NCBI GenBank assembly: GCA_963816185.1
Contig: CAWFJJ010000006.1
Span: 1,326 to 65,325 of the forward strand
Length of the DNA stretch: 64,000 nt
Source: Thermoanaerobaculia bacterium
Lineage (GTDB): Bacteria; Acidobacteriota; Thermoanaerobaculia; UBA5066
Reading direction: 5' to 3'
Position 1 is the first letter of the stretch, and every line of letters begins with the position of its first letter. The notes under the pieces were generated by a model. The model did no database searches and had not been told where the DNA came from. It saw only the letters and a list, made by a program, of their open reading frames with translations. Below are positions 7,101-21,149 of the stretch, in pieces. A program made the position numbers and the translations under genes.

Positions 7101-10100
7101 CGAGCAAGGCGAGCTCGGCCGCCGCATCGGAGATCGAGGCGGCCCGGATCTTCCTCGACGACCTGCCGCTCCTGAAGTTCCTCTCGCCCGCGTCGCGCGC
7201 CGCCGTGACCGCGAAGTTCGTTCCCGTCGCCTTTCCCTTCGGCGCCGTCATTCTCCGCGAGGGCGACCCCGCCGACGCCTTCTTCGTCGTCGTCGCCGGG
7301 AAAGCGCGGGCGGTGAAGACGGGGGAACAGGGCGAGGAGGTTTCGCTTGGCGTACTTCGGCCCGGAGACAGCTTCGGCGAGATGGGTCTTCTGGATCCTT
7401 CAGCAAAGCGGCAGGCCACCGTACGCGCCTCGAGCGCGGCGACGGTCCTCCGGCTCGACCGGAACGCCTTCGACGCGCTTCTTTCCGGTGATCCGGAGAT
7501 CCGGACCTGCCTGGAGCTCCACGTCAGGTACCGGAGCCTCCAGAACCTCTTCCGTCTCTACACTCCTTTTTCCACCCTTCCGCCGTCCGTCCTCGCCGGG
7601 CTCCTCCACCGGTTCGAGACGATCTCCGTCGCCGCCGGTGAGGCCGTCTTTCGACAGGGGGATGGCGAGGGGCCTCTCTTCGTCGTCGAGGAAGGGCGGC
7701 TTCGCGTCTTCACCGAAGACGATGGGCACCGGCGAAACATCGCTTATCTGCGAAAAGGCGACGTCTTCGGAGAGATCTCGGCCTTCACGGGGGAACCGAG
7801 AAAGGCCACGGTCGAGGCTGTCACGCCCTGCCGGCTCCTGAGCCTTCACCCGAGCGCCTTCCGGGCGGTCACGGACGCTCACCCGGAATTTCGCGCGGCC
7901 ATCGGACGACGTATCGCCCAGTACGACTATCGAAAAGAGGCCAGGGTGCCGCTCGACTTCGCCGACGAGCTCCTGCCCGCGGAGGCGCAGGTGGAGGAGG
8001 TGGGACCCGACCAGATCGACGAGGACGCCGATCGTCCGCCGGACGAATCTTCAGCGGAGGGATCCGCCGCTCCCTTCGCGACGGAAGACGGTCGGTTCGT
8101 CAAGGGGCCTCGGCGGATCCGCCGCTTTCGCTTCGTCCGGCAGATCGACGAAATGGACTGCGGCGCGGCCTCCCTCGCGATGGTCTGCCGCCACTTCGGC
8201 CGCGCGGTGAGCCTCGCGCGGATCCGGCAGCTCCTCTTCACGTCGACTGACGGCACCAGCCTCCGGGCGGTCTGCCGCGGTGCGGAGGAGCTGGGGCTCG
8301 CCGCGCGCTCCGTCAAGGCCTCGGCGAGGCACCTGGACCAGATGCCGCTCCCCGCGATCCTGCACTGGGGCGGCAACCACTGGGTCGTCCTTTACGACGT
8401 GAGCCCGACGGAGGCTCGCGTGGCCGACCCGGGGGTCGGGCTCAGGCGCCTTCCCCGCGCGGAGGTCGAGAAGGAGTGGACCGGCTACGCCGCCCTCTTC
8501 GACTACACGGAGGCGTTCGAGAAGGCTCCGGTGGGGCGCTCCAGCTTCGCCTGGCTCACCCGGTTCTTCCGGCCGCACGCGGGCGTCCTCGCGAAGGCGG
8601 CCGGCCTCGCCCTGATCGTCAGCGTCCTGCAGATGGTCCTCCCGGTCTTCAGCCAGGTCATCGTCGACCGGGTTCTCGTCGAGCGCGACGAGGGGCTGCT
8701 CCGGATCCTCCTTTTCGGGATGGGAGGCGTCCTCGTCTTCTCGACTCTCGCGATGGTCCTGCAGCGATATCTCCTGAGCTTCGCCGCGGTCCGGATCGAC
8801 GCCTCGACGCTCGACTTCGTCACGCGGCGCCTCCTGTCGCTTCCGATGTCCTACTTCTCGACGCGGAAGACAGGCGACATCCAGCGCCGCCTCATGGGCC
8901 TCCGGCAGGTGCGAGAGCTCCTCGTCCAGTACGGGGTCTCCTCGCTGACCGCCCTCTCGCAGCTCTCCGCGGTCCTGATCCTGATGTTCGTCTACAGCCC
9001 CCTCCTCGCGGGCGTCTTTCTCGCGACCGTCCCCCTCTACGCCCTTCTCATGCGGTACTCGAGGCGCCGGCTGCGTCCCGTCTTCGACACGCTCGAGGAG
9101 GCGTTCGGAAAGTATTCCGCCCAGCAGATCGACACCATCAAGGGGATCGAGACCGTCAAGTCGCTCGGGGCCGAAGGCTCCCTCCGTCAGCTGATGCTGG
9201 AGAGGTTCCTCGGCCTCGCCCGAAAGCAGTTCCGCGCCGACTTCACGGTCATGACCTACGAAGGCGCCGTCCAGGCCGTGAGCTTCCTCTCGACCGCCCT
9301 CTTCCTCTGGGCGGGGGCCGTCCAGGTGATGCGCGGGTCGCTCACCATCGGCGGGCTCGTCGCGTTCAACACCCTCGTCGCCCTCGCGAACGCCCCGATC
9401 GGGATCCTGCTCGCGACCTGGGACCACCTCCAGTACGGAACGGTTCTCCTCGACCGCCTGAACGACGTCTTCGAGCAGAAGCCCGAGCAGGGCGACGACC
9501 GGTCCCAGCTTCTCCCGGTCCGGACGCTCGCGGGAAAGGTGTCGCTCCGAAACGTCGGCTTCCGATTCGGCGGGCCCGAGTCGCCGTTGATCCTCGACGG
9601 CCTGACGTTCGACGTGGACCCGGGAAAGATGGTGGCGATCGTCGGCCGGAGCGGCTCCGGCAAGACGACCCTCGCCAAGCTCCTCTCCGGCCTCATGGAG
9701 CCGACCGAAGGATCGATTCTTTTCGACGGAGCGGACCTCAAGACGCTGAATTACCGGGACCTCAGGCGCCGCGTCGGCTTCGTCCTCCAGGAGAACTACC
9801 TCTTCGACGAGACGATCGCCCGGAACATCGCCTTCGGCGACGGCGAGCCCGACGTGGACCGGGTCCTTTGGGCCGCCCGGGTCGCGAGCGCCCACGAGTT
9901 CGTCGAGAGGTTTCCGCTCGGCTACGACACCCGGGTCGGCGAGTCGGGCCTCGCCCTCTCCGGCGGGCAGAAGCAGCGCGTCGCCATCGCGCGGGCCGTC
10001 TACAACCGTCCCCCGGTCCTGATCTTCGACGAGGCGACCAGCTCTCTCGACACCGAATCGGAGCGGGCGGTCAAGGAGAACCTCGACCGCCTTCTGGAGG

Positions 10101-10264
10101 GCCGGACGTCGTTCGTGATCGCCCACAGGCTCAGCACCATCCGCGACGCGGACGTCATCCTCGTCCTGGAGAAGGGACGTCTCGTCGAGCACGGGACTCA
10201 CGACGAGCTGATGGACCGCCAGGGGCTCTACTACTACCTGTCGAGCCAGCAGCTCGGGATCTAG
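7082..10264 (+). CDS. peptidase C39 domain-containing ABC exporter with two N-terminal cyclic-nucleotide-binding-like domains
   Basis: 1060-aa ORF. Two CAP/cNMP-type segments (..GDSFGEMGLL.. and ..GDVFGEISAF..). C39 catalytic motifs QIDEMDCGAASLAMV (Cys) and GGNHWVVLYDV (His). ABC membrane domain, Walker A GRSGSGKTT, signature LSGGQKQR, Walker B VLIFDEATS. Confidence 0.9.
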   Translation: MDMEAVTSKASSAAASEIEAARIFLDDLPLLKFLSPASRAAVTAKFVPVAFPFGAVILREGDPADAFFVVVAGKARAVKTGEQGEEVSLGVLRPGDSFGEMGLLDPSAKRQATVRASSAATVLRLDRNAFDALLSGDPEIRTCLELHVRYRSLQNLFRLYTPFSTLPPSVLAGLLHRFETISVAAGEAVFRQGDGEGPLFVVEEGRLRVFTEDDGHRRNIAYLRKGDVFGEISAFTGEPRKATVEAVTPCRLLSLHPSAFRAVTDAHPEFRAAIGRRIAQYDYRKEARVPLDFADELLPAEAQVEEVGPDQIDEDADRPPDESSAEGSAAPFATEDGRFVKGPRRIRRFRFVRQIDEMDCGAASLAMVCRHFGRAVSLARIRQLLFTSTDGTSLRAVCRGAEELGLAARSVKASARHLDQMPLPAILHWGGNHWVVLYDVSPTEARVADPGVGLRRLPRAEVEKEWTGYAALFDYTEAFEKAPVGRSSFAWLTRFFRPHAGVLAKAAGLALIVSVLQMVLPVFSQVIVDRVLVERDEGLLRILLFGMGGVLVFSTLAMVLQRYLLSFAAVRIDASTLDFVTRRLLSLPMSYFSTRKTGDIQRRLMGLRQVRELLVQYGVSSLTALSQLSAVLILMFVYSPLLAGVFLATVPLYALLMRYSRRRLRPVFDTLEEAFGKYSAQQIDTIKGIETVKSLGAEGSLRQLMLERFLGLARKQFRADFTVMTYEGAVQAVSFLSTALFLWAGAVQVMRGSLTIGGLVAFNTLVALANAPIGILLATWDHLQYGTVLLDRLNDVFEQKPEQGDDRSQLLPVRTLAGKVSLRNVGFRFGGPESPLILDGLTFDVDPGKMVAIVGRSGSGKTTLAKLLSGLMEPTEGSILFDGADLKTLNYRDLRRRVGFVLQENYLFDETIARNIAFGDGEPDVDRVLWAARVASAHEFVERFPLGYDTRVGESGLALSGGQKQRVAIARAVYNRPPVLIFDEATSSLDTESERAVKENLDRLLEGRTSFVIAHRLSTIRDADVILVLEKGRLVEHGTHDELMDRQGLYYYLSSQQLGI

Positions 10265-11466
10265 ATGGACGAGGCGCCGTTCCTCCCGAGCGACCCGCCG
10301 CCCTTCGCGGCCCGGAGCCTCGCATGGCTCCTGATCGCCCTCTTCGCAGTGGCCGCTGTCGTATCGGTGGCGGTCAAGGTTCCCGAAACGGTCGTCGCCC
10401 CGTTCGCCCTTGTGCCCATGCGCGGCACCGATCCGGTTCGCGCTCCGCACGGAGGCACGGTCACGGAGGCTCTTGCCGTCGAGGGGCGCCCCGTGGCCAA
10501 GGGCGCGAGGCTCTTTGCCATCCGGTCGCAGGAGTTCGGGGACAGGGCCTCCGAGCGGAAGGCGCTCGAAGCAGGCCTCGGCGGACTTGCCGAGAGCCTT
10601 TCCAACGCCCGGAAGAGATTCGACAGCGAGGCCGGCGAGAGGCGTGAGGAGGCCCGGAGTCTCGCCGATCGCGCGGCCTATCTCGATCGGATGCTGGCTT
10701 TGAAGAGGGAGCAGCTCGCCTTGACGCTGGAGCAGTCCGAGCGGGCGAAGAAGCTCGCCGACCAGGGGCTCGCGAGCTTCAACGACCGTTCCGACGCCCA
10801 GATCCGGCACAGCCAGACCGTCATGGAGCTCGAGCAGCTCCAGTCCGACCGGAGCGCGACCGGGAGCGCCATCGAGAAGCTTCGCGACACCGAAGCGGCG
10901 AAGGGGACCGAGTTCCACGAGGAGGAGCGGGTCCTCGAGGAGAAGATCGCTCAGGCGAGAATCAGGATCGGCGCGCTCAGCGGGGGGCGCCCTCCGCCGG
11001 CGGAGACGAATCTGGAAACGAGCTGGCCGTCACTTCTCCGTGCGACGGCACCGTTCTCGGCGTCACGGCGCGGCGGGCCGGGGCGGTGGTCCGCGAAGGC
11101 GACGTCCTCGCCGAGGTCGCCTGCTCCGCCGAGACCCTGCAGGCCGAGCTGAGCCTCCCGCAGGGAGGGCTCTCCCGGATCCACCCCGGCCAGAGCGTCC
11201 GCCTCCTCCTCGACGCGTTCCCGTACCAGCGCTACGGCGTCCGCGGGGGAAGGGTCCGGTGGGCCAGCCCCTCCGGGGTCGGGACCCGCGAGGCCGCGAC
11301 CTTCCCCGTCCTCGTCGACCTGGACGAGCAGGCCGTCCCGGCGGACGGCGAGCGCAAGCCGCTCCTGGCGGGAATGCGCGGCACCGCGCGCGTCGTCGTC
11401 GGCCGCCGCACGCTCGTCGAGTACGCCTTCGAGCCTCTCCGGCAGCTTCGGGAGAACCTCCGGTGA
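10265..11466 (+). CDS. HlyD-family membrane-fusion/adaptor protein, reading frame interrupted once
   Basis: The ATG abuts the exporter stop (TAGATG). The N-terminal ~240 codons (TM helix LAWLLIALFAVAAVV, long coiled coil) are in one frame. The C-terminal barrel part (NELAVTSPCDGTVLGVTARRAGAVVREGDVLAEV...GMRGTARVVVGRRTLVEY) is in another. The two join only if the run GGGGGG at 10982-10987 gains or loses one G. Confidence 0.75.
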
Positions 11467-11532
11467 CGCGGAAGAGCTTCGCTCGACGCGACGCAACTCA
11501 CGCTCGAGACCTTCCGGAGCGCCGACGCCGCG

Positions 11533-12438
11533 ATGCGCCGCTGCCTCGACGTGGCGCGTGCCGCCTGCCGGACCGAGCTTCCGCTCCTCCTCCTCGGCGA
11601 GTCGGGGACCGGAAAGACGCTCCTCGCCCAGGCGATCCACAACTCCTCTCCGAGAGCGTCGGCTCCCTTCGTCTCCTTCAACGCCGCGGCCCTCTCCGAC
11701 ACGCTCCTCGACAGCCAGCTCTTCGGCCACGAGAAAGGGGCGTTCACGGACGCCAAGCAGCCGCTGCGCGGCAAGTTCGAGGTCGCCGACGGCGGGACCC
11801 TCTTCATCGACGAGATCGCCGACATGAGCCCGCTCGCCCAGGCGAAGATCCTCCGGGCGGTCGAATACGGAGAGTTCGAGAGGCTCGGATCCGAGCGGCT
11901 CCGCAAGGCGGACGTCCGCCTGATCTCGGCCACCCGCCACCCGCTGGAGCGGTTTGCGAACACCGAGCAGTTCCGGAGCGATCTCTTCTACAGGCTCGCG
12001 GGGCTCACCGTCACCCTTCCCCCGCTGCGCGAGCGGCCGAACGACCTGCGCGAGCTCGTCGCGGCCTCGATCCATCGCGCCGCTCACGCACAGGGACGGA
12101 CCATCTCCGGTCTCTCCCAGAAGGCCGCCGATGCCCTTTTCTCGTATCACTGGCCCGGGAATCTCCGGGAGCTCGACCTCGTCATCCACGCCGCAGTCGC
12201 GATGACCGAGGGCTCGGTGATCGAGGAATTTGCGATCCTGGTCCGAAACAACGGCGGGCCCGGGACGTCCCCTTCCGCCGCGCGGCCGGTCCCTGCGGCC
12301 GACCTGAGCCTCCGGGCCGTCGAGCGAGACCACATTCACCGGGTCCTCCGGGAGCTCGGGGGGAACAAGACGAGGGCCGCCAGGACCCTCGGCATCTCGC
12401 GCTCCCGCCTCGAGAGGAAGCTCAACGACGCGAAGTGA
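11533..12438 (+). CDS. sigma-54-dependent transcriptional activator (bEBP) lacking an N-terminal sensory domain
   Basis: 301-aa ORF. AAA+ core GESGTGKT, GAFTDA (GAFTGA variant), LFIDEIADM, WPGNLRELD. C-terminal Fis-type HTH NKTRAARTLGISRSRLERKL. Only ~22 in-frame codons separate the HlyD stop from the first ATG, so there is no room for a receiver, GAF or PAS module. Confidence 0.85.
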   Translation: MRRCLDVARAACRTELPLLLLGESGTGKTLLAQAIHNSSPRASAPFVSFNAAALSDTLLDSQLFGHEKGAFTDAKQPLRGKFEVADGGTLFIDEIADMSPLAQAKILRAVEYGEFERLGSERLRKADVRLISATRHPLERFANTEQFRSDLFYRLAGLTVTLPPLRERPNDLRELVAASIHRAAHAQGRTISGLSQKAADALFSYHWPGNLRELDLVIHAAVAMTEGSVIEEFAILVRNNGGPGTSPSAARPVPAADLSLRAVERDHIHRVLRELGGNKTRAARTLGISRSRLERKLNDAK

Positions 12439-12573: not shown

Positions 12574-12589
12574 TGGAACGGTCCTTGCT
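12574..12589 (+). promoter_or_regulatory. sigma-54 (-24/-12) promoter heading the peptide-gene array
   Basis: TGGAAC-GGTCC-TTGCT. GG (12575-76) and GC (12587-88) have the canonical 12-nt register of TGGCAC-N5-TTGC. Located 135 nt downstream of the bEBP stop and 42 nt upstream of the first leader-type RBS and start. Confidence 0.6.
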
Positions 12590-12630: not shown

Positions 12631-12772
12631 GTGAACCACGAAGAAAACCCCCTCGGGCTTCTACAAGAAGGCGGTGAAGGACCTCGACGTCAAGCCCGCC
12701 AAGGTGACGTCCGCCCGGGCGTCCAGTCTCGAACCGGCCGTCAGCGACCGCGAAGAAGGCGAAGAACCGATC
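12631..12772 (+). pseudogene. decayed copy of the Lys-rich leader peptide gene
   Basis: Preceded by the family RBS (GAAAGGAGAAACGAC-GTG). The nucleotide sequence aligns to the leader consensus only with several small indels. The motif KDLDVKPAK is readable only in a shifted frame and both GG motifs are lost. Confidence 0.5.
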
Positions 12773-12913
12773 ATGAAGAAGACCCCGAAGAAAAGCGCCC
12801 GGACAAGCTTCTCAAAGAAGACGCGGTCAAGGACCTCGCACCAAGCTCCGCCAAGGGCAGGCGGCACGAGGCGGCACGGGAAGGTCTGTGACAGGGGTGG
12901 ATCGAGCATCTGA
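12773..12913 (+). pseudogene. divergent or decayed leader-peptide gene copy (46-codon ORF still open)
   Basis: MKKTPKKSARTSFSKKTRSRTSHQAPPRAGGTRRHGKVCDRGGSSI. The N-terminus (MKKTPKK) and C-terminus (..RGG-SSI) match the family, but the central AVKDLxxKPAKGG block is encoded out of frame (DAVKDLAPSSAKG in another frame). Confidence 0.4.
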
Positions 12914-12968
12914 CGAGCGACCTCCAGCTCGGCAAGGTTCTCGTCCGAGAGATTCCTGTCACTGCGAC

Positions 12969-13190
12969 ATGAAGACGGGCCGCCGCAAGACGAAGCCGTC
13001 GCCGGGGTTCGTCCCCCTCAGGGACCTCGTCCCCCGAAACGACCCCAAGGGCGGGTCGGCCGGGAAGACGGTATTCGGTGAACGTCCCCCGATCGCTCGA
13101 GACAGAAGAAAAGCACCCCTTCAAGGATGTTCCGGCCGAACGAAGGCAGAAGCCGGGTCACGACCGAAACAGGAAGAAAGGAGAAACGCC
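12969..13190 (+). repeat. R-element copy 1 (Arg-rich ORF MKTGRRKTKPSPGFVPLRDLVPRNDPKGGSAGKTVFGERPP.., fused in frame to precursor A by a 1-nt difference)
   Basis: ~225-nt element shared with 5 other copies. It ends in the conserved box CCGGCCGAACGAAGGCAGAAGCCGGGTCACGACCGAAACAGGAAGAAAGGAGAAACG plus the start codon of the next gene. Confidence 0.7.
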
Positions 13191-13376
13191 ATGAAGAAGA
13201 CCACGAAGAAAAGCTCCTCGAAGGCCTCTCACAAGAGAGCCCGCAAAAACCTCGACGTCACGCCTGCCAAGGGCGGGACCGTCCGGGGAGGCGGCAAGGC
13301 GGGCTCGGGCAGGACTACTGTCAGCGACCTCCAGATCAGCAAAGTTGTCGACAAGAGTTCAGCCGTGCTGTTCTGA
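13191..13376 (+). CDS. precursor peptide A: MKKTTKKSSSKASHKRARKNLDVTPAKGGTVRGG / GKAGSGRTTVSDLQISKVVDKSSAVLF
   Basis: ATG preceded by AAAGGAGAAACGCC. 61 codons. Family leader plus a 27-residue C-terminal part. Confidence 0.8.
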   Translation: MKKTTKKSSSKASHKRARKNLDVTPAKGGTVRGGGKAGSGRTTVSDLQISKVVDKSSAVLF

Positions 13377-13399
13377 GAGCGACCTGCTCGAAGACTGGC

Positions 13400-14542
13400 A
13401 TGGTACGGCTTCCGACGATCCCGGACACTCCCGCCAAAGGCCCGGCTCCGCTCCATGCACGCTGGCTCGAAGAGGCCCTCGGGGGAAAGATCCCCTCCGA
13501 GCCCCACGCCACGTGCGAGAGCTGCCCCATGCTCCCTGTGCCCGGCGGCGCGGACGGGGCCCGGGACGCGGTCTTCTTCAATCCCAAGACGAAGTGCTGC
13601 ACCTACCTGCCGAGGCTTCACAACTTTCTCGTCGGCGCGATCCTGGCAGACGAGGCGCCCGACATGGCCGAAGGGCAGGCGCGCGTTCTCGAGAGGATCG
13701 GAAAAAGGGTCGGCGTGACGCCGCTTTGGGTCGGCGCCGGTGGAGCGTACAGCCTCATGTACGACCACGGTGACGGGGTCTTCGGCCACAGCGAGGCGAT
13801 GCGCTGCCCCTACTACCTCGAGGATCGGATCGGCGGCGGCTGCGGGATATGGCGTCACCGCAATTCCATCTGCATGACCTGGTTCTGCAAGCACGAGCGC
13901 GGGGCCCGGGCGCTGCGGTTCTGGGACTCGGCCAAAGAGCTGCTGATGGCCGTCGAGGAGAACCTCGCGATCCACTGCCTCGTCACCCTCGGTTTCGACG
14001 ACGCGGCGCTCCGGACCAATTTCCCGTTCAAGGTTCCGAAGTCTCAGCGGACGGAAACCGTGAAGGGGGACGAGCTCGACGGCACGGTGAGCCCCGAGAG
14101 GTACAAGGCCCTCTGGGGAAGCTGGGCTGGCCGCGAGAAGGAGCTCTACCTCCTAAGCGACGGGATCGTCCGGAACATGGAGTGGAAGGACGTCGAGCGA
14201 ATCGGCGGCGCGAACGTCGCTCTCCTCTCGCAGCTCGCACGCGCTGCCTACCAGACGGCAGCCAGCGACGCTCTTCCGGAGCGCCTCGAAATCGGCAACC
14301 TCAACGTCATCGGCGCCGGGCGTAAGACCGTGCGCCTCGGCACCTACAGCCCATACGACCCCATCGATGCTCCTGCCGCGCTTCTTCCGGCATTGCCCGC
14401 CTTCGACGGCTCCAGGGTACCCGACGCCCTCCGCGCGATCGAGAAGGATCATGGGCTCGTCCTGAGCCCCGAGCTCGTCCGAAAGCTCGTCGACTACGGC
14501 CTGCTCCGCGCGGTGACCGCCCCCGAAGACGAGCGAGTCTAA
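13400..14542 (+). CDS. Cys-rich protein, paralogue 1 (YkgJ/FliB-like CxxC...CC metal-cluster motifs); candidate peptide-tailoring enzyme
   Basis: 380 codons from ATG 13400 within ORF 13127..14542, 23 nt after precursor A. Conserved Cys pattern C-ESC...KCCTYLPRL...MRCPYYLEDRIGGGCGIWRHRNSICMTWFCKHE. The CPYYLEDRxxxxC...RxxxC block resembles the PF03692 (CxxCxxCC / flagellin lysine-N-methylase FliB) family as I remember it. Confidence 0.7.
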   Translation: MVRLPTIPDTPAKGPAPLHARWLEEALGGKIPSEPHATCESCPMLPVPGGADGARDAVFFNPKTKCCTYLPRLHNFLVGAILADEAPDMAEGQARVLERIGKRVGVTPLWVGAGGAYSLMYDHGDGVFGHSEAMRCPYYLEDRIGGGCGIWRHRNSICMTWFCKHERGARALRFWDSAKELLMAVEENLAIHCLVTLGFDDAALRTNFPFKVPKSQRTETVKGDELDGTVSPERYKALWGSWAGREKELYLLSDGIVRNMEWKDVERIGGANVALLSQLARAAYQTAASDALPERLEIGNLNVIGAGRKTVRLGTYSPYDPIDAPAALLPALPAFDGSRVPDALRAIEKDHGLVLSPELVRKLVDYGLLRAVTAPEDERV

Positions 14543-14605
14543 CCAGAACTCGATGAGAAGGCCGAAGCCGGGTCATGAACAAATCAGGGCAAAAGGAGAA
14601 ACGAC

Positions 14606-14737
14606 GTGAAGAAGACCACGAAGAAAAGCCCCTCGAAGGCATCTCACAAGAAGGCGGTCAAGAACCTCGAGCTCAAAACGGTTAAGAGCGGGACGGTCCG
14701 AGGAGGAGTACCCGCGGTCCAAAAGTCAGGGAGATAG
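14606..14737 (+). CDS. precursor peptide B: MKKTTKKSPSKASHKKAVKNLELKTVKSGTVRGG / VPAVQKSGR
   Basis: GTG start 6 nt after AAAGGAGAAACGAC. 43 codons. TAG stop at 14735. Confidence 0.8.
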   Translation: MKKTTKKSPSKASHKKAVKNLELKTVKSGTVRGGVPAVQKSGR

Positions 14738-14747
14738 GAGGAGCAAC

Positions 14748-14885
14748 ATGAAAAAGATCGCGAAGAAGGGCGCCCCGAAGGCCTCTCACAAGAAATCGGT
14801 CAAGGACCTCGAGATCAAGCCCGCCAAGGGCGGGACGGGCGAGACGGTCCGTGGCGGCAAGATGATCGACAAGATCCACATCTGA
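14748..14885 (+). CDS. precursor peptide C: MKKIAKKGAPKASHKKSVKDLEIKPAKGGTGETVRGG / KMIDKIHI
   Basis: ATG after GGAGGAGCAAC. 45 codons. Leader carries the 3-residue insert GET. Confidence 0.8.
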   Translation: MKKIAKKGAPKASHKKSVKDLEIKPAKGGTGETVRGGKMIDKIHI

Positions 14886-14921
14886 CGAGCGCCGCCTGCT
14901 GCAAGGATCGCCCGACCTTCG

Positions 14922-15145
14922 ATGATGAAGACAGGCCGCCGAGGACCAAGCCGTCGCCGGGGGTTCGTCCTCCTCAGAGATCTCATCCCTCGAAACGACC
15001 CCAAAGGCGGGTCGGCCGGGAAAACGGTATTCGGTGAACGTCCCACGGTCCTCGAGACAGAAGAAAAGCACCCCCATGAGGATGTTCCGGCCGAACGAAG
15101 GCAGACGCCGGGTCACGGCCGAAACAGGAGGAAAGGAGACACGAT
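14922..15145 (+). repeat. R-element copy 2 (intact 75-codon ORF 14922..15149: MMKTGRRGPSRRRGFVLLRDLIPRNDPKGGSAGKTVFGERPTVLETEEKH...)
   Basis: Same element as 12969, 15772, 16505, 18386 and 18945. The ORF stop overlaps the precursor D start (ATGA). Confidence 0.7.
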
Positions 15146-15286
15146 ATGAAGAAGACCACGAAGAAGACCCCGAAGGCCTCGCACAAGAAGGCGGTCAGGA
15201 ACCTCGACGTCAAGCCCGCGAAGGGTGGAACGGTCCGTGGCGGAATACATGGTGGCTGGGACCAGCTCGCGAACAAGAAAGTTTGA
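15146..15286 (+). CDS. precursor peptide D: MKKTTKKTPKASHKKAVRNLDVKPAKGGTVRGG / IHGGWDQLANKKV
   Basis: ATG after AAAGGAGACACGAT. 46 codons. Confidence 0.8.
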   Translation: MKKTTKKTPKASHKKAVRNLDVKPAKGGTVRGGIHGGWDQLANKKV

Positions 15287-15373
15287 GTTCCTGGAACACC
15301 CTTCTTAGAAAGTCCGGTCGAACGAAGGTAGAAGCCGGGTCACGACCGAAACAGGAAGTAAGGAGAAGACGTC

Positions 15374-15520
15374 ATGAACAACCCCAAGAAGAAGAGCGCC
15401 TCGAAGGCCTCCCACAAGAGGAAGGTGAAGGACCTCGAGATCAAGCCCGCCAAAGGAGGGACCGTCCGTGGAGGCAAGGTCTTTCCCAAGGTGACCACGG
15501 GTTTGCTCGACAAGTACTAG
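15374..15520 (+). CDS. precursor peptide E: MNNPKKKSASKASHKRKVKDLEIKPAKGGTVRGG / KVFPKVTTGLLDKY
   Basis: ATG after GTAAGGAGAAGACGTC. 48 codons. Confidence 0.8.
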   Translation: MNNPKKKSASKASHKRKVKDLEIKPAKGGTVRGGKVFPKVTTGLLDKY

Positions 15521-15596
15521 CGAGGCTGAAGTTACCCCTTTCGTCGCGCGACCTCGCGCTCGGTCACGACCGAAACAGGAAGAAGGGAGACACGAC

Positions 15597-15734
15597 ATGA
15601 AGAAGAACGCGAAGAAGAACCCTCCGAAGGGTTCCCGAAAGAACGCAATCAAGGACCTCGAGATCAAGCCCGCCAAGGGCGGGACGGACGGGACGGTCCG
15701 TGGCGGCAAGTTCGAGACCAAGATCCACATCTGA
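15597..15734 (+). CDS. precursor peptide F: MKKNAKKNPPKGSRKNAIKDLEIKPAKGGTDGTVRGG / KFETKIHI
   Basis: ATG after AGAAGGGAGACACGAC. 45 codons. Leader insert DGT. Confidence 0.8.
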   Translation: MKKNAKKNPPKGSRKNAIKDLEIKPAKGGTDGTVRGGKFETKIHI

Positions 15735-15771
15735 CGAGGGCCGCTTGCCGTAAGGGCCGATCGGCCCCTCG

Positions 15772-15996
15772 ATGATGAAGACAGTCCGCCGAGGACCAAG
15801 CCTTCGCCAGGGATTCGTTCCCCTCAGGGACCTCGTGCCCTGAAACGACCCCAAGGGGGGGTCCGCTGGGAAGACGGTATTCGGCGAACGTCCCCCGGTT
15901 TCCGTGACAGAAATGACACAGCGCTTCCAGGATGTTCCGGCCGCACGAAGGCAGAAGCCGGGTCACGGTCGAAACAGTAAGTAAGGAGAAGACGTC
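15772..15996 (+). repeat. R-element copy 3 (ORF interrupted by TGA at 15841: MMKTVRRGPSLRQGFVPLRDLVP*)
   Basis: Nucleotide-level homologue of the other R copies, but with an in-frame stop inside the otherwise conserved PRNDPKGG block. Confidence 0.65.
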
Positions 15997-16128
15997 ATGA
16001 ACAACCCCAAGAAGAAGAGCGCCTCGAAGGCTTCCCACAAGAAGACGGTCAAGAACCTCGAGGTCACGCCCGTCAAGGGCGGGAAGGTCCGTGGGGGCTT
16101 CCCGACGCCATGGAAAAACAAGGTCTAA
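15997..16128 (+). CDS. precursor peptide G: MNNPKKKSASKASHKKTVKNLEVTPVKGGKVRGG / FPTPWKNKV
   Basis: ATG after GTAAGGAGAAGACGTC. 43 codons. Confidence 0.8.
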   Translation: MNNPKKKSASKASHKKTVKNLEVTPVKGGKVRGGFPTPWKNKV

Positions 16129-16174
16129 TGCCGCCCGAAATGACGCGCGAATCCAGAAGAAAGGAGAAACGAAC

Positions 16175-16306
16175 ATGAAAAAGACCTCGAAGAAGAGCGC
16201 CTCGAAGGCATCTCACAAGAAGGCGGTCAAGGACCTCGAGGTCAAGCACGCCAAGAGCGGGACGGTTCGCGGAGGACTGCCCCCCGGTCCACCAACCTAC
16301 AAATGA
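16175..16306 (+). CDS. precursor peptide H: MKKTSKKSASKASHKKAVKDLEVKHAKSGTVRGG / LPPGPPTYK
   Basis: ATG after GAAAGGAGAAACGAAC. 43 codons (3' part of ORF 16091..16306). Confidence 0.8.
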   Translation: MKKTSKKSASKASHKKAVKDLEVKHAKSGTVRGGLPPGPPTYK

Positions 16307-16327
16307 GTGGACAAAATGAGAACCGAC

Positions 16328-16453
16328 ATGAAGAAGACCACGAAGAAAGACCCTTCGAAGGCCTCTAAGAAGAAGGCGGTCAAAAACCTCGAGGTCAAGC
16401 CCGCGAGGGGTGGAACGGTCCGCGGAGGCTGGGACCCGACCAAAGCGCGATAG
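16328..16453 (+). CDS. precursor peptide I: MKKTTKKDPSKASKKKAVKNLEVKPARGGTVRGG / WDPTKAR
   Basis: 41 codons. No obvious SD. An in-frame ATG at 16316 would add MRTD. Starts 22 nt after precursor H. Confidence 0.7.
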   Translation: MKKTTKKDPSKASKKKAVKNLEVKPARGGTVRGGWDPTKAR

Positions 16454-16504
16454 CGTCGAAACGAGTCACTCGAAACGACCCCTTCTCCGAAAGTGAACCG
16501 CGAG

Positions 16505-16725
16505 ATGAAGACAGGCCGCGGTAAGACAAAGCCCTCGCCGGGGTTCGTCCCCCTCAGGGACCTCATCCCCCGAAACGATCCCAAGGGCGGGTCGGCCGGG
16601 AAGACGGTATTCGGCGAGCGTCCCCCGGTCCTCGAGGCAGAAGAAAAGCACCCCTTCAAGGATGTTCCGGCCGAACGAAGGCAAAAGCCGGGTCACGACC
16701 GAAACAGGAAGAGAGGAGAGACGAC
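16505..16725 (+). repeat. R-element copy 4 (ORF 16493/16505..16729: MKTGRGKTKPSPGFVPLRDLIPRNDPKGGSAGKTVFGERPPVLEAEEKH...)
   Basis: Belongs with copy 1 to a subclass that differs from copies 2, 5 and 6 by a compensated pair of 1-nt indels near the 5' end. Preceded by two TCGAAACGA boxes (16456, 16470). Confidence 0.7.
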
Positions 16726-16914
16726 ATGAAGAAGAACACGAAGAAGACAGCCTCCAAGGCAAAGGGGCCCAAGGCGACGAAGAATCTCGACGTCAAGCCC
16801 GCCAAGGGCGCGAAGGTCCGTGGTGGAACTGTAAACAAGGGGTGGATCGAAGTTTCATCCTTCAGTTTTAATGCGGAACCCACCGTCAGTGTGACCGCGA
16901 AGAAGCCGTCCTGA
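16726..16914 (+). CDS. precursor peptide J: MKKNTKKTASKAKGPKATKNLDVKPAKGAKVRGG / TVNKGWIEVSSFSFNAEPTVSVTAKKPS
   Basis: 62-aa ORF in the track. RBS GAGAGGAGAGACGAC. Stop overlaps the GT41 start (TGATG). Confidence 0.8.
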   Translation: MKKNTKKTASKAKGPKATKNLDVKPAKGAKVRGGTVNKGWIEVSSFSFNAEPTVSVTAKKPS

Positions 16915-18386
16915 TGAGCACCGGCTGGCCGAAGGGCTGCCGCATGCTCGCGGCGGGCAAGTATGCGAGCGGCCTCGCGGCCTTCGAACCGGCCGTCCGG
17001 GCGAGTCCGGACTCTGCGGCCGCACGATTCCACCTCGCCCGGGCGAGCTTCGCCCTAGGGGAGGTCGAGAGGGCGACCCGGCAGCTTCGGGCGGCACTCC
17101 GGATCCGCACGGATATCCGAGCTCTGCGGTTCCTGGCCACGATCGCCCCGTTCGACCCGCGCCTCGACCACGCGGCGATCCTGAAGGTCCGCCGCGCGCT
17201 GGCCGCTGCGGTTCGCGCTCGAACCGTCGCGCCCGCCAGGGCGATCGTCGTCGGGAGCCCGGCCAGGAAAGTGCTCAAGGTTGGCTACGTCTCGTCTTTC
17301 TTCGACAAGGACAACTGGATGAAGCCGGTGTGGGGGCTGATCGATCACCACGACGCCAAGAGGGTGGAGATCCACCTTTTTGCCGACGTGCCGCGCGTTT
17401 CTGCGGTGCGTCGGCGGGCGCGTGCGAGCGCGGCGCACGTCCACGACATCTCGCGCCTTGACAACGATGTGGCCGCGCGGCTGATCGCCCGGACGGGGCT
17501 CGACGTCCTCGTGGATCTCAATCAGTACAGCCGGGTCGGCCGGATGCCGCTTTTTTCGACCAGGCTGGCGCCGGTCGTCGTCGCGTGGTTCAACATCTTC
17601 GGGACCTCGGGAATGCCGGTTTTCGACGCGCTGATCGGCGATCGATGGCTCGTCCGCGACGTCGAGAAGCCTTGGTACCTCGAAAAGATCGTGAAACTCC
17701 CGTTCTCGTCGCTGACTTTCGCGGTGGACTATCCGGTCCCTGACGTCGGGCCGCCGCCTTTCTTGCGCAACGGCTTCGTCACGTTCGGAAGTCTTTCGTC
17801 GCTGTACAAGCTCAACGACGGCGTCGTCGGCACCTGGGCCGACATTCTGAAGCGGAGCCCGGGAAGCCGTCTTCTCCTGGGCAATGCGGATCTGGGAGAC
17901 CCCGGCAACCGAGCGCACACTCTCGAGCGATTCACCGCGCGCGGGATCGAGCCCGCGCGCGTCACGTTGCTCGGGCCCGACGAGCACTACGAGTTTCTCC
18001 GAAACTACGACGCGATTGACCTCGCTCTCGACACGTTCCCCTACAACGGAGGCACGACGACCACCGAGGCGATCTGGCAAGGAGTCCCGGTCGTCGCGTT
18101 CTTGGGGGACCGGTGGATCTCGCGTACCAGCGCCTCCCTGCTGGAAAACGCCGGTCTTGAGGGCTTCGTCAGCCGGGACGTCCGCGGTTATGTCGAAACG
18201 GCCGTCCGGTGGGGGTCGGGAGCAAAGGCGGAAGAACGGAGAGAGCTCCGCCGCACGATGAGGAAACGCCTGAAAGCCTCACCCGTCACCGACTGCGCGA
18301 GCCTCGCGCGCTGCATCGAGGACGCTTACGTCCAATTGTGGGGCGCGAGGACTCGCTCCGCTCTCCCTCAGCGGATGACAGCGTGA
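16914..18386 (+). CDS. TPR-containing GT41-family glycosyltransferase (OGT/SPINDLY-like)
   Basis: 490-aa ORF. N-terminal TPR-like helices. C-terminal block VTFGSLSSLYKLND...LLLG...IDLALDTFPYNGGTTTTEAIWQGVPVVAF matches the GT41 catalytic-domain signature (DTFPYxGxTTxxxALWxGVPVV). Confidence 0.85.
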   Translation: MSTGWPKGCRMLAAGKYASGLAAFEPAVRASPDSAAARFHLARASFALGEVERATRQLRAALRIRTDIRALRFLATIAPFDPRLDHAAILKVRRALAAAVRARTVAPARAIVVGSPARKVLKVGYVSSFFDKDNWMKPVWGLIDHHDAKRVEIHLFADVPRVSAVRRRARASAAHVHDISRLDNDVAARLIARTGLDVLVDLNQYSRVGRMPLFSTRLAPVVVAWFNIFGTSGMPVFDALIGDRWLVRDVEKPWYLEKIVKLPFSSLTFAVDYPVPDVGPPPFLRNGFVTFGSLSSLYKLNDGVVGTWADILKRSPGSRLLLGNADLGDPGNRAHTLERFTARGIEPARVTLLGPDEHYEFLRNYDAIDLALDTFPYNGGTTTTEAIWQGVPVVAFLGDRWISRTSASLLENAGLEGFVSRDVRGYVETAVRWGSGAKAEERRELRRTMRKRLKASPVTDCASLARCIEDAYVQLWGARTRSALPQRMTA

Positions 18387-18606
18387 TGAAGACAGGCCGT
18401 CGAGGACCAAGCCGTCGCCGCGGGTTCGTCCTCCTCAGAGATCTCGTCCCCCGAAACGATCCCAAGGGCGGATCGGCCGGGAAGACGGTATTCAGCGAGC
18501 GTCCCCCGGTCCTCGAGACAGAAGATAAGCATCACCTTAAAGATGTTCCGGCCGAACGAAGGCAAAAGCCGGGTCACGACCGAAACAGGAAGAAAGGAGA
18601 AACGAC
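18386..18606 (+). repeat. R-element copy 5 (ORF 18386..18610: MKTGRRGPSRRRGFVLLRDLVPRNDPKGGSAGKTVFSERPPVLETEDKHHLKD...)
   Basis: The ATG overlaps the GT41 stop (TGATG). The stop overlaps the precursor K start (GTGA). Confidence 0.7.
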
Positions 18607-18741
18607 GTGAAGAAGATCACGAAGAAAGGTCCCTCGAAGGCCCCCAAGAAGAGGACGACGAAGAATCTCGACGTCAAGCCCGCCAAGGGCGGGACGATCC
18701 GCGGGGGGAGCCTCCCCCGACAGTGGAAGTGGATCGAGTGA
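18607..18741 (+). CDS. precursor peptide K: MKKITKKGPSKAPKKRTTKNLDVKPAKGGTIRGG / SLPRQWKWIE
   Basis: GTG after AAAGGAGAAACGAC. 44 codons. Confidence 0.8.
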   Translation: MKKITKKGPSKAPKKRTTKNLDVKPAKGGTIRGGSLPRQWKWIE

Positions 18742-18776
18742 CGCCGGCCGACGGCCAGAAGGAAAGGAGAAACGCC

Positions 18777-18908
18777 ATGAAAAAGACCACGAAGAAGAAC
18801 CCTCCGAAGGTGTATCGAAAGAAGGCAATCAAGGACCTCGAGATCAAGCCCGCCAAGGGCGGGACGGGCGAGACAGTCCGTGGCGGCAAGGATAAGATCC
18901 ACATCTGA
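18777..18908 (+). CDS. precursor peptide L: MKKTTKKNPPKVYRKKAIKDLEIKPAKGGTGETVRGG / KDKIHI
   Basis: ATG after GAAAGGAGAAACGCC. 43 codons. Leader insert GET as in precursor C. Confidence 0.8.
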   Translation: MKKTTKKNPPKVYRKKAIKDLEIKPAKGGTGETVRGGKDKIHI

Positions 18909-18944
18909 CGAGAGCCGCTTCCTGCAAGGACCGCCCGATCCTCG

Positions 18945-19168
18945 ATGATGAAGACAGGCCGCCGAGGACCAAGCCGTCGCCGGGGGTTCGTCCTCCTCAG
19001 AGATCTCGTCCCCCGAAACGATCCCAAGGGCGGGTCGGCCGGGAAGACGGTATTCGGCGAGCGTCCCCCGGTCCTCGAGACAGAAGATAAGCATCACCTT
19101 AGAGATGTTCCGGCCGAACGAAGGCAGAAGCCGGGTCACGACCGAAACAGGAAGAGAGGAGAAACGAC
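18945..19168 (+). repeat. R-element copy 6 (ORF 18945..19172: MMKTGRRGPSRRRGFVLLRDLVPRNDPKGGSAGKTVFGERPPVLETEDKHHLRD...)
   Basis: Near-identical to copies 2 and 5. Most differences from them fall on third codon positions of this frame (manual comparison). Confidence 0.7.
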
Positions 19169-19312
19169 GTGAAGAAGATCACGAAGAAAGGTCCCTCGAA
19201 GGCTTCCAAGAAGAGGACGACGAAGAATCTCGACGTCAAGCCCGCCAAGGGCGCGACGGTTCGTGGCGGAGTGCATGGCGGTTGGGACCAGATCGCGAAC
19301 AAGAAGATTTGA
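19169..19312 (+). CDS. precursor peptide M: MKKITKKGPSKASKKRTTKNLDVKPAKGATVRGG / VHGGWDQIANKKI
   Basis: GTG after AGAGGAGAAACGAC. 47 codons. Confidence 0.8.
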   Translation: MKKITKKGPSKASKKRTTKNLDVKPAKGATVRGGVHGGWDQIANKKI

Positions 19313-19393
19313 GTTCCTGGAACACCCTTCATAGGTCTGGTCGAACCACTACAAGCCGGGTTACGACCGAAACAGGAAGAGAGGAGACACGAC

Positions 19394-19537
19394 ATGAAGA
19401 AGAACACGAAGAAGACAGCCTCCAAGGCAAAGGGGCCCAAGGCGACGAAGAACCTAGAGGTCAAACCCGCCAAGGGGGCGTCGGTCCGTGGCGGAGTGCA
19501 TGGTGGCTGGGACCAGGTCGGGAACAAGAAGTATTAG
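19394..19537 (+). CDS. precursor peptide N: MKKNTKKTASKAKGPKATKNLEVKPAKGASVRGG / VHGGWDQVGNKKY
   Basis: ATG after AGAGAGGAGACACGAC. 47 codons. The stop abuts the Cys-rich paralogue 2 ORF. Confidence 0.8.
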   Translation: MKKNTKKTASKAKGPKATKNLEVKPAKGASVRGGVHGGWDQVGNKKY

Positions 19538-20782
19538 TTGCCCTCTGATCAAGTGACCTCTCCGAAGACCCGCGCGGTCCGGCTCCCGTCGATCACCGAT
19601 GCTCCCGCCAGGGGCCTGGCACCGCTTCATGCGCGCTGGCTCGAGGCGGCGCTCGGGGGCAAGATTCCTTCCGAGCCACACGCGGCGTGCGACAACTGCG
19701 CGATGCTGCCGGTGTCCGGAGGCGCGGATGAAGAGCGCGGCGCAGTCTTCTTCAACCCCAGGACGAAGTGCTGCACTTACCTGCCGAGACTTCACAACTT
19801 TCTCGTCGGGGCGATCCTCGCAGACGAAGCGACCGATATGGCCGAAGGGCGTGCCCGCGTCCTGGAGAGGATCGGGAAGAAGGTCGGCGTGACGCCGCTC
19901 TGGGTCGGCGCCGGCGGCGCGTACAGCCTCGTGTACGACCACGGAGACGGGGTCTTCGGCCACAGCGAGGCGATGCGCTGCCCCTACTATCTCGAAGACC
20001 GGATCGACGGCGGCTGCGGGGTGTGGCGTCACCGCAATTCCATCTGCATGACCTGGTTCTGCAAGCATGAGCGCGGGGCCCCGGCGCTGCGGTTCTGGGA
20101 CTCGGCCAAAGAGCTGCTGATGGCCGTCGAGGAGAATCTCGCGATCCATTGCCTCGTCACTCTGGGTTTCGACGACGCGGCGCTCCGGACCAATTTCCCG
20201 TTCAAGGTTCCGAAATCTCAGCGGTCGGAAACCGTGAAGGGGGACGAGCTCGACGGCACGGTGAGCCCGGAACGATACAAGGCTCTCTGGGGGAGCTGGA
20301 CGGGCCGCGAGGAGGAGCTCTACCGCCAATGCGACGCGATCGTCCGAGACATCGAGTGGAAGGACGTCGAGCGCATCGGCGGCGCGAGCGTCGCACTCCT
20401 GTCGCAGCTCGCGCGCGCGGCCTATCAGGCGGTGATCCGTGACGACCTTCCCGAGCGGCTCGAGATCGGCAATCTCAGCGTCATCGGCACGGGGCGCGGG
20501 ACCTTGCGCCTGGCCACGTACAGCGCCTACGACCCCATCGACGCCCCGGCCGCGCTTCTCCCCGTGCTTCCCGCGTTCGACGGCTCCAGGGTGCCCGACG
20601 CCCTTCGCGCGATCGAAAGGGACCATGGGCTCGTCCTGAGCCCCGAGCTCGTCCGAAAGCTCGTCGACTACGGCCTGCTCCGCGCGGTGGACGCCCCCGA
20701 AGACGAGCAAGTCTGGCGAAACTCCATGAAAAGGCGGAAGCCGGGTCATCGCCAAAACAGGATGAAAGGAGAAACGACATGA
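19538..20782 (+). CDS. Cys-rich protein, paralogue 2 (YkgJ/FliB-like motifs)
   Basis: 414-aa ORF. Start is TTG 19538 or GTG 19553. About 47 substitutions over ~378 aligned residues versus paralogue 1 (manual count), and all 9 Cys of paralogue 1 are conserved. It lacks the stop used by paralogue 1 and reads 22 codons further, ending in an ATGA overlap with precursor O. Confidence 0.7.
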   Translation: MPSDQVTSPKTRAVRLPSITDAPARGLAPLHARWLEAALGGKIPSEPHAACDNCAMLPVSGGADEERGAVFFNPRTKCCTYLPRLHNFLVGAILADEATDMAEGRARVLERIGKKVGVTPLWVGAGGAYSLVYDHGDGVFGHSEAMRCPYYLEDRIDGGCGVWRHRNSICMTWFCKHERGAPALRFWDSAKELLMAVEENLAIHCLVTLGFDDAALRTNFPFKVPKSQRSETVKGDELDGTVSPERYKALWGSWTGREEELYRQCDAIVRDIEWKDVERIGGASVALLSQLARAAYQAVIRDDLPERLEIGNLSVIGTGRGTLRLATYSAYDPIDAPAALLPVLPAFDGSRVPDALRAIERDHGLVLSPELVRKLVDYGLLRAVDAPEDEQVWRNSMKRRKPGHRQNRMKGETT

Positions 20783-20910
20783 AGAAGATCACGAAGAAAG
20801 GTTCCTCAAAGGCTTCCAAGAAGAAGGCGGTCAGGAACCTCGACGTCAAGCCTGCGAAGGGCGGGACGGTCCGTGGAGGGGCAACCAGACTCGACAAGTG
20901 GCCCGGGTAG
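20779..20910 (+). CDS. precursor peptide O: MKKITKKGSSKASKKKAVRNLDVKPAKGGTVRGG / ATRLDKWPG
   Basis: ATG after GAAAGGAGAAACGAC. 43 codons. Confidence 0.8.
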   Translation: MKKITKKGSSKASKKKAVRNLDVKPAKGGTVRGGATRLDKWPG

Positions 20911-20934
20911 ACGCTTGGCGGCCGGCAGCACGCG

Positions 20935-21149
20935 AGGCCGGCTACGCGGTACTTCCGCGCGAAGAGCGTGAGCCGCGCGGAGAGGTGGAGAAGCTGAGCG
21001 AGCTGCGTCGCACGATGAGGATACGGTTGCGGGCTTCGCCGGTCACCGATTGCCCAAGGCTCGCGCGCCGCATGGACGATGTCTACCTCCGGCTATCGGG
21101 CGCGAGCCCTCGTCGGAAACGACCCCGGGCCGCGCTCCCGCGTAATTGA
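20935..21149 (+). pseudogene. C-terminal remnant of a second GT41 glycosyltransferase gene
   Basis: ..ELRRTMRIRLRASPVTDCPRLARRMDDVYLRL.. aligns to the last ~45 residues of the intact GT41 protein (ELRRTMRKRLKASPVTDCASLARCIEDAYVQLW). Nothing corresponding to the TPR or catalytic parts precedes it. Confidence 0.7.

Follow-up and report, generated by a model that had tools for sequence, protein, structure and literature searches.

Eight-cysteine proteins with a predicted C-terminal RiPP recognition element are encoded among Gly-Gly leader peptide genes in a Thermoanaerobaculia genome and related loci

Maturases for RiPPs (ribosomally made peptides that carry post-translational modifications) that depend on a RiPP recognition element (RRE), including PqqD/PqqE, MccB, NisB/MibB, TigE, the lasso B1 proteins and TglHI, have a PqqD-like beta3-alpha3 domain fused to a catalytic domain; their genes adjoin those of the precursors, and multiple precursors can share one leader type while the cores are hypervariable. 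NHLP/Nif11-type systems (TIGR03796/TIGR03797) combine large precursor arrays, in which a conserved leader ends in GG, with a C39-ABC exporter and a HlyD protein. Two groups of Cys-rich proteins are also relevant here: YkgJ proteins (PF03692), which are single-domain proteins of ~135 aa with no assigned function, and the flagellin lysine-N-methylase FliB, which has eight conserved Cys and binds a [4Fe-4S] cluster via an N-terminal Cys motif (PMC8598068). We analyzed two paralogous genes, A and B, that are embedded in an array of small peptide genes on contig CAWFJJ010000006.1 of a Thermoanaerobaculia bacterium (Acidobacteriota; GCA_963816185.1). The stretch of 64,000 nucleotides that was studied is referred to as the window, and both genes were read from its open reading frames (ORFs) and their translations.

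The A/B family is probably the class-defining, iron-sulphur (Fe-S)-dependent maturase of an undescribed RiPP family, and the sequence evidence tips in favor of A and B being catalytic metallo-maturases that act on the neighboring cores, whatever the reaction. The two proteins and the domains of A are as follows.

13400..14542, + strand: paralogue A, 380 aa, in three parts: eight-Cys domain at the N-terminus, helical domain in the centre, predicted RRE at the C-terminus
13487..13903, + strand: eight-Cys domain of A (approximately residues 30-168), C39xxC42...C66C67...C136...C148...C158...C163
14255..14515, + strand: predicted RRE of A, PqqD-like, beta3-alpha3, residues 286-372
19538..20782, + strand: paralogue B, a 414-aa ORF with a TTG start, the same three domains as A, and a 22-codon tail

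An AlphaFold2 model of A, built on an alignment of 41 homologues (predicted local distance difference test 85.6, predicted template modelling score 0.86), has a Cys-rich and mostly irregular N-terminal part (approximately residues 30-168), a helical central domain (residues 169-290) and a C-terminal beta-beta-beta-alpha-alpha-alpha unit (residues 295-371) with the PqqD-like beta3-alpha3 leader-binding fold. The best structural matches of this C-terminal unit are all peptide-binding RREs, with 66-88 residues aligned, and they include the three-stranded sheet that is lacking in DNA-binding winged helices. Foldseek returned nothing significant from the PDB, its top match nonetheless being an RRE, TbiB1, while a profile search of PDB sequences gave a chance match only (E = 0.69); neither search found a solved-structure relative of the N-terminal eight-Cys domain. 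A metagenomic homologue of 605 aa (P0472) carries canonical PqqD domains at both of its ends (PF05402, E = 3.3e-25), besides its own internal RRE. Because the structural matches are RRE-like and the PqqD fusion in P0472 is independent of them, we take the modelled C-terminal domain to be an RRE, in a protein that appears built to bind the leader of a precursor. It differs from the RREs of the maturases listed above in being C-terminal and in escaping the Pfam PqqD model, and the domain to which it is fused is not of the radical S-adenosylmethionine (SAM), YcaO, ThiF/E1, LanB or MNIO type.

A and B are collinear, with 332 of 379 residues identical, 92% positives and no gaps (BLASTP); the initial annotation had counted about 47 differences in ~378 residues by eye, and the alignment gives exactly 47. 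These differences are evenly distributed over the three domains (~0.11 per site in each), and a concentration of the divergence in the RRE, as might fit two leader types, was accordingly rejected. Both proteins have Cys at positions 39, 42, 66, 67, 136, 148, 158, 163 and 193, in the motifs that had been listed initially, and B alone has a tenth at position 253. Each gene lies directly behind a precursor gene, at the 0-23 nt spacing noted earlier: A starts 23 nt downstream of the stop of precursor 13191..13376, and the ORF of B (TTG at 19538) begins immediately after the stop of precursor 19394..19537. The upstream start of B is plausible because both of the orthologues in a related genome share the N-terminal extension that it adds (‘SDQVTSPKTRA’). 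At its other end B runs 22 codons beyond the stop point of A. This tail crosses the following precursor's repeated 5' region and finishes in an ATGA overlap at 20779. The dN/dS ratio between A and B is 0.165 at a dS of 0.40 (Nei-Gojobori), which shows that both are under purifying selection. Since two copies are also kept in a related Thermoanaerobaculia metagenome-assembled genome (MAG), which is the closest relative among the genomes searched, A and B are maintained functional genes rather than decaying duplicates.

Scans of A and B against Pfam and NCBIfam gave no match, even at E≤1, and the 41 homologues matched nothing relevant in NCBIfam. A word-indexed search recovered 219 homologues, all annotated as ‘hypothetical’ except for a few that the Joint Genome Institute (JGI) names ‘Fe-S-cluster containing protein’, a name that derives from COG0727, the entry for the YkgJ/CxxCxxCC family. 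In an exhaustive profile search of 1.84 billion representatives, the family comprised 1,988 clusters (50% identity) at E≤1e-3, of which 1,194 were found at E≤1e-30, nearly all of them 340-400 aa long and matching over their full length. A scan of one genome per species located the family in 259 genomes, almost all of them soil or sediment MAGs, from the Acidobacteriota, Chloroflexota, Methylomirabilota/Rokubacteria, Gemmatimonadota, Myxococcota, Alpha- and other Proteobacteria, Planctomycetota and Bacteroidota.

In the alignment of 41 homologues, which extends down to 37% identity, eight Cys (C39, C42, C66, C67, C136, C148, C158 and C163) are invariant in all 41 sequences and C193 is conserved in ≥90%, a pattern far beyond chance. 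Invariant residues other than Cys include W22, E34, R99, Y121, W151, R154, E186, W239 and W242. In the block TWFCKHxRG, T160-W-F-C-K164 and R167-G168 are invariant and H165 is ≥90% conserved.

The initial annotation had likened the Cys-rich block to PF03692 and called for a Pfam scan. The resemblance is borne out weakly, and for the family rather than for the two proteins themselves: PF03692 is the sole Pfam family that recurs among the 41 homologues, matching 17 of them below threshold (best, 18.5 bits, E = 0.0033; gathering cut-off, 23 bits), while A and B gave no match at E≤1. When the N-terminal domain of the family was compared by hhalign with a YkgJ alignment that started from a genuine PF03692 protein encoded in one of the loci, the result was E = 0.004 with a probability of 8%. 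The register of this alignment places C66C67 on the CC pair of YkgJ, and C136...C148-G-I-W-x-x-R-x-x-x-C158 on C78...C88-T-I-Y-x-x-R-P-x-x-C98. The A/B family and YkgJ each have eight invariant Cys, with an aligned CC pair and an aligned block of the form C-x(9-11)-C-(I/V)(W/Y)-x2-R-x3-C; however, the first Cys group of the A/B family is CxxC-x23-CC rather than the CxxCxxCC of PF03692, and the A/B family adds this 23-residue insert, a helical domain of ~120 residues and the RRE to what is found in YkgJ. On these sequence comparisons, the N-terminal domain probably belongs to the YkgJ-type Cys-cluster superfamily, as a very divergent member.

The suggested link to FliB fared less well. The FliB query was confirmed as such by its match to NF038110 (272.7 bits) and by 95% identity to a database Salmonella lysine-N-methylase. 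NF038110 matched neither A, B nor any of the 41 homologues, and A and B gave no match to PF27117, the separate Pfam family that FliB homologues carry in precomputed database annotation. The A/B family was not significantly similar to a profile of 24 FliB sequences in hhalign, at full length or with the N-terminal domain (probability ≤0.5%), and membership of A and B in the FliB family was rejected on the combined model and profile results. FliB stands at a comparable distance from YkgJ, with E = 0.009 against the YkgJ profile (hhalign; A/B family, E = 0.004) and E = 0.055 only against PF03692. What the A/B family, YkgJ and FliB have in common is eight conserved Cys in a 4+4 layout. FliB is further like A and B in its length (~400 aa), in an N-terminal C..C..CC group, which binds [4Fe-4S] in FliB, in its marginal relationship to PF03692 and in having Lys-rich substrates encoded next door. 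It differs in the spacing of the first Cys group (Cx4Cx3CC versus CxxC-x23-CC), in its lack of an RRE, in its substrate, a folded protein of 50 kDa, and in its context, a flagellar operon rather than a peptide array with an exporter.

The array in which A and B lie is made up of 15 type-1 precursors, five intact type-2 precursors and a disrupted one, A, B and a glycosyltransferase gene with tetratricopeptide repeats (TPR-GT41).

~12631..20910, + strand: peptide array, at least 20 small genes whose Lys-rich products have Gly-Gly leaders
13191..13376, + strand: type-1 precursor directly 5' of A, Lys-rich leader ...KNLDVTPAKGGTVRGG, core GKAGSGRTTVSDLQISKVVDKSSAVLF, Hcp-like
14606..14737, 14748..14885, 15146..15286, 15374..15520 and 15597..15734, + strand: type-1 precursors, the first five of a set of nine
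15997..16128, 16175..16306, 16328..16453 and 16726..16914, + strand: type-1 precursors, the last four of the nine
18607..18741, 18777..18908, 19169..19312 and 19394..19537, + strand: four type-1 precursors, the last one directly 5' of B
20779..20910, + strand: last type-1 precursor, core ATRLDKWPG, its ATG overlapping the stop of B
12969.., 14922..15149, 16505..16729, 18386..18610 and 18945..19172, + strand: intact type-2 precursors

Leaders end in ...V(R/K)GG. The type-1 leader reads MKKTTKKxxSKASHKKAVKNL(D/E)VKPAKGGTVRGG and is followed by cores of 6-28 residues; two of the cores encoded within 18607..19537 have the form VHGGWDQ(I/V)(A/G)NKK(I/Y). The type-2 leader is ...LRDL(V/I)PRNDPKGG (...LRDLVPRNDPKGG), with a core that begins SAGKTVFGERP... 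Type-2 precursors are interleaved with the nine type-1 genes of 14606..16914, stand before six type-1 genes in all, and are conserved at the protein level in five related loci (L001, L016, L017, L034 and L060); the disrupted copy, at ~15772..15996, has an in-frame stop in its leader. A repeat of ~60 nt that ends in the ribosome-binding site precedes nine type-1 genes (13151..13176 and eight further sites up to 19379; searched with a 26-nt core and up to 3 mismatches). The same repeat is also read as the C-terminal tail of B and of type-2 ORFs, and no significant RNA fold was found in this repeated 5' region (z = 0.10). At the head of the array, just after a sigma-54-like site, 12631..12913 holds two degenerate type-1 copies in which the start codon is lost or the frame disturbed.

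The peptides are indeed unusually rich in Lys, as was first noticed: Lys makes up 28% of the leaders and 15.3% of the cores, compared to 3.3% of the neighboring large proteins. Every one of the 15 type-1 cores contains Lys (P ~1.6e-8 at the background frequency), the ratio of Lys to Arg in these cores is 28:5 against background frequencies of 3.3% and ~9%, respectively, and none contains Cys. Lys-rich core tails (...NKKV, ...TYK, ...PVPKK, ...ANKKA) are frequent both here and in other loci. This bias of the cores is consistent with a Lys-directed reaction.

Conserved proximity to peptide genes extends well beyond the window. Gene neighborhoods were compared for 84 family loci by all-against-all clustering of neighboring ORFs, with exporters scored within 10 kb. 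Homologues at 38-47% identity keep a similar neighborhood in other lineages, and in at least half of the loci a small gene with a GG site can be recognised next to that of the enzyme. In loci of the Methylomirabilota/Rokubacteria type (L002, L013, L021 and L009) and of the Blastocatellia (L005), an exporter, HlyD and/or a sigma-54 activator are present and two to six small Gly-Gly peptide genes adjoin the Cys-rich gene. Gly-Gly peptide genes adjoin 38-47% homologues, with or without an exporter, in L002, L004, L005, L010, L015-L017, L029, L031 and L033-L035, and also in L056, L058, L064, L072, L073, L082 and L083. Precursor genes that share a leader thus adjoin the family gene in the window and in related loci of several phyla. 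The only other genes that recur near the family are those for the exporter, HlyD and the sigma-54 activator; the clustering revealed no second conserved enzyme in the 84 loci, and the GT41 of the window is limited to it and a close relative (L001). This makes the Cys-rich RRE protein the sole constant partner of the peptides. Together with the predicted C-terminal RRE and the PqqD fusion in P0472, the conserved adjacency to Gly-Gly peptide genes across phyla strongly supports the initial suggestion of a peptide-modifying enzyme.

The leaders of these small genes are of three types: Lys-rich, longer and faintly nitrile-hydratase-like (in L073, a non-significant match to PF02979, E = 0.069), and ‘MPISEYxLLALL...LGADAIVQPNGG’ followed by a Lys-rich tail. 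The last type is encoded just upstream of the family member in many loci that lack an exporter, and its QP(N/S)GG form is present in L003, L014, L018, L024, L030, L042 and L046. A twin-arginine translocation (TAT)-like variant (L047, L049 and L061; some Alphaproteobacteria) starts with SRRGLLKGALIALGAS-IVQPNGG, and a run of 9-11 Lys follows.

Many cores resemble successive segments of Hcp, the tube protein of the type VI secretion system (PF05638), with each piece placed behind its own leader. The whole precursor 13191..13376 matches PF05638 with E = 0.0011, and its core alone with E = 0.003 (18.3 bits, profile positions 43-67); the core of 16726..16914 (TVNKGWIEVSSFSF...) matches positions 16-39, and another core positions 1-24. 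Hcp-like cores in the window are encoded at 13191..13376, 16726..16914, 15146..15286 and 19169..19537, and others occur in L016, L017, L029, L031, L033, L034, L056, L058, L063, L073 and L082. When cores of a single locus were joined in the order of Hcp, the PF05638 scores were 31.0 bits for the window, 31.9 for L017 and 31.8 for L033 (Pfam cut-off, 23.5 bits). A set of seven cores, drawn from several loci and strung together in the same order, gave one collinear match over positions 1-109 (62.1 bits, E = 8e-17), a figure inflated by selection as these peptides were chosen by eye. As controls, reversing the order of the cores split the match into three stretches, and the remaining cores of the window gave no match. 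A tblastn search with P. aeruginosa Hcp1 (query confirmed by a PF05638 match of 150.7 bits) found further pieces in L016, L017, L029, L031, L033, L034 and L063, and no full-length Hcp gene in the window or the fetched loci. Given the per-locus results and the controls, the sequence resemblance to Hcp is real for roughly half of the cores. The cores differ from Hcp, a protein of 160 aa, in being pieces of 8-30 residues that each stand behind an export leader, and about half of the cores in the window have no Hcp similarity.

A and B belong to a single co-directional gene block, from 6099 to ~20910, in a window with a G+C content of 61-74% (2-kb windows). The block also encodes an export module, a regulator and a candidate tailoring enzyme.

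6099..7097, + strand: PpiC-type rotamase-like protein (PF13145, E = 6.9e-6), with an orthologue in L001; a rotamase occurs in L005 too
7082..10264, + strand: exporter with two cyclic-nucleotide (cNMP)-binding domains, a C39 peptidase and an ABC transporter (Pfam; PF03412, E = 1.2e-32)
10265..11466, + strand: HlyD-type membrane-fusion protein, weak HlyD Pfam matches, frameshift near 10990
11485..12438, + strand: sigma-54 activator with AAA+ and Fis-type helix-turn-helix domains and without a receiver domain (PF00158, E = 2.7e-58; extent taken from the L001 orthologue)
12574..12588, + strand: sigma-54 promoter-like site heading the array, TGGAACGGTCCTTGC, one mismatch to TGGCAC-N5-TTGC
16914..18386, + strand: TPR and GT41 (SPY/OGT-like) glycosyltransferase embedded in the array (PF13844, E = 3.6e-35)
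20898..21149: C-terminal GT41 remnant of a second copy, after the last precursor

The precursors with GG sites and the ABC exporter with its N-terminal C39 peptidase are the components of a Gly-Gly leader/C39 export system, and the exporter is presumed to be the machine for leader cleavage and export. Its best NCBIfam match is TIGR03796, under the cut-off of that model. From NHLP/Nif11 systems the locus differs in this sub-threshold match and in the two cNMP-binding domains of the exporter, in a short and extremely Lys-rich leader with no NCBIfam match, and in its maturase, which is new. C39-ABC exporters with two N-terminal cyclic-nucleotide-binding domains occur throughout the system (the window, L002, L005 and others), and their domain content suggests a role for cAMP or cGMP in gating export. 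The HlyD gene was recovered by tblastn as two pieces (frames 2 and 1), while its counterpart in the related MAG is one intact ORF of 400 aa; either the split reflects an error of sequencing or a frameshift has inactivated this gene of the export module. The position of the sigma-54-like site is suggestive: it is the only good site found before any of the precursors, and the number of matches across the window is not above chance. GT41 is a candidate for lineage-specific tailoring, and the GT41 remnant suggests that segments of the array have been duplicated and deleted.

The system appears to operate like other RRE-guided RiPP pathways with Gly-Gly leader export; what is new is the catalytic domain, which is new to RiPPs, the leader and the Hcp-like cores. 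In the pathway that we propose, the RRE would dock the leader of each precursor, the eight-Cys domain would hold one metal centre or two, most likely of the [4Fe-4S] kind that FliB has, and modify the core, and the C39 exporter would then cleave after ...VRGG and secrete the product, with output controlled by the single sigma-54 promoter and the cNMP domains of the exporter. A Lys-directed, Fe-S or Zn-dependent reaction is a reasonable hypothesis from the sequences. We rank Lys modification first among the possible activities, since Lys is the only residue present in nearly all cores and FliB provides a precedent for Fe-S-dependent Lys methylation; by that analogy the reaction could be a modification of Lys side chains such as SAM-dependent N-epsilon-methylation, a tentative proposal that is, taken singly, rather unlikely. 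Ranked second, and itself unlikely, is that proteins of the same architecture and role carry out different Fe-S radical or redox chemistry, for example cross-linking through a C-C or C-N bond (as between Lys and Trp), hydroxylation, epimerisation or a reaction at the newly formed core termini. A Trp lies close to Lys in 8 of the 15 cores (WDQxxNKK, PWKNK, QWKW, DKW, NKGW), the mechanism of FliB has itself been proposed to be radical-like, and, as the cores have no motif in common besides Lys, the site of modification is unreadable from sequence; yet Trp is missing from the other 7 cores, there is no auxiliary SPASM-type domain, and the CxxxCxxC motif of radical-SAM enzymes is absent from the A/B family, whose 41 members have no match to Radical_SAM (PF04055) at E≤10.

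Several observations weigh against A and B being Lys-modifying Fe-S maturases. Two structural Zn ions would suit the eight Cys equally well, and no SAM-binding motif is recognisable. The link to PF03692 is under the Pfam threshold and fails for A and B themselves, and the chemistry of FliB can be transferred only by analogy, as no similarity between FliB and A/B is detectable. On the substrate side, Lys is most abundant in the leader, the part that is removed, and some cores of other loci have no Lys (e.g., LRRRS and VGTSAGRYIRFD). On the export side, most family loci have no exporter within 10 kb (a cNMP-C39 ABC exporter is present in ~25 of 84), and the HlyD gene of the window is frameshifted. 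Our third-ranked activity, which we regard as doubtful, is that A and B are non-catalytic leader-binding chaperones or adaptors in which structural zinc supports the Cys domain and which hold the basic precursors for the C39 exporter or GT41. Stand-alone or fused RREs are often adaptors, the RRE fold is the only part of A/B with a recognised function, PF03692 is annotated merely as ‘zinc- or iron-chelating’, and no active-site or cofactor motif can be recognised. An adaptor would, however, leave unexplained the ~280 residues outside the RRE, which are more highly conserved than scaffolds usually need, and in most loci the protein is the sole conserved partner of the peptide genes, with no GT41 or other enzyme to which a peptide could be handed. 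A regulatory or immunity role, with an Fe-S cluster sensing redox state or metal and a winged-helix-like C-terminus binding DNA or the mature peptide, would suit the elaborate regulation of the locus (sigma-54 activator, exporter cNMP domains). It is very improbable in view of the C-terminal matches, all of them to peptide-binding RREs with the three-stranded sheet, of the PqqD fusion in one homologue, and of the position of both copies in the operon directly after precursor genes. Alternatively, A and B could be lysine methylases of proteins rather than peptides, whether FliB orthologues or not, with flagellin or some other large protein as the substrate and an incidental position in the array. 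Their similar length (~380-400 aa) and eight conserved Cys would fit; this reading is effectively refuted, as FliB models and profiles do not detect them, no flagellar genes were found among the ORFs examined near A/B (~1-26 kb of the window) or at those related loci that were inspected, and both the RRE and the conserved position beside small peptide genes indicate peptides as substrates.

We found no paper on the A/B family or on Hcp-like leader peptides in a literature search that left out subscription journals, and nothing relevant on YkgJ, PF03692 or FliB in connection with RiPPs, on Hcp in connection with RiPPs, or on cNMP-C39 exporters. As a new type of maturase, this large family (~2,000 clusters) would provide a new genome-mining handle for soil bacteria. 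Its small soluble peptide substrates would also offer a route into the poorly understood chemistry of eight-Cys proteins of the FliB/YkgJ type; FliB, to our knowledge, has resisted mechanistic work.

A bolder proposal, and one that we consider a long shot, is that the products are secreted, lysine-modified mimics of single Hcp beta-strands, made by an Fe-S enzyme similar to FliB that has gained a domain for leader binding, and constitute a new RiPP class. If so, the enigmatic YkgJ/FliB-type Cys domain would gain a tractable small-peptide substrate, and Hcp-strand peptides could interfere with the assembly of the Hcp ring or tube or with effector loading, providing a peptide counter-measure to contact-dependent attack. 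Leader-tagged peptides that tile Hcp raise a testable question, namely whether peptides interfere with type VI secretion or with related tail-tube assemblies.

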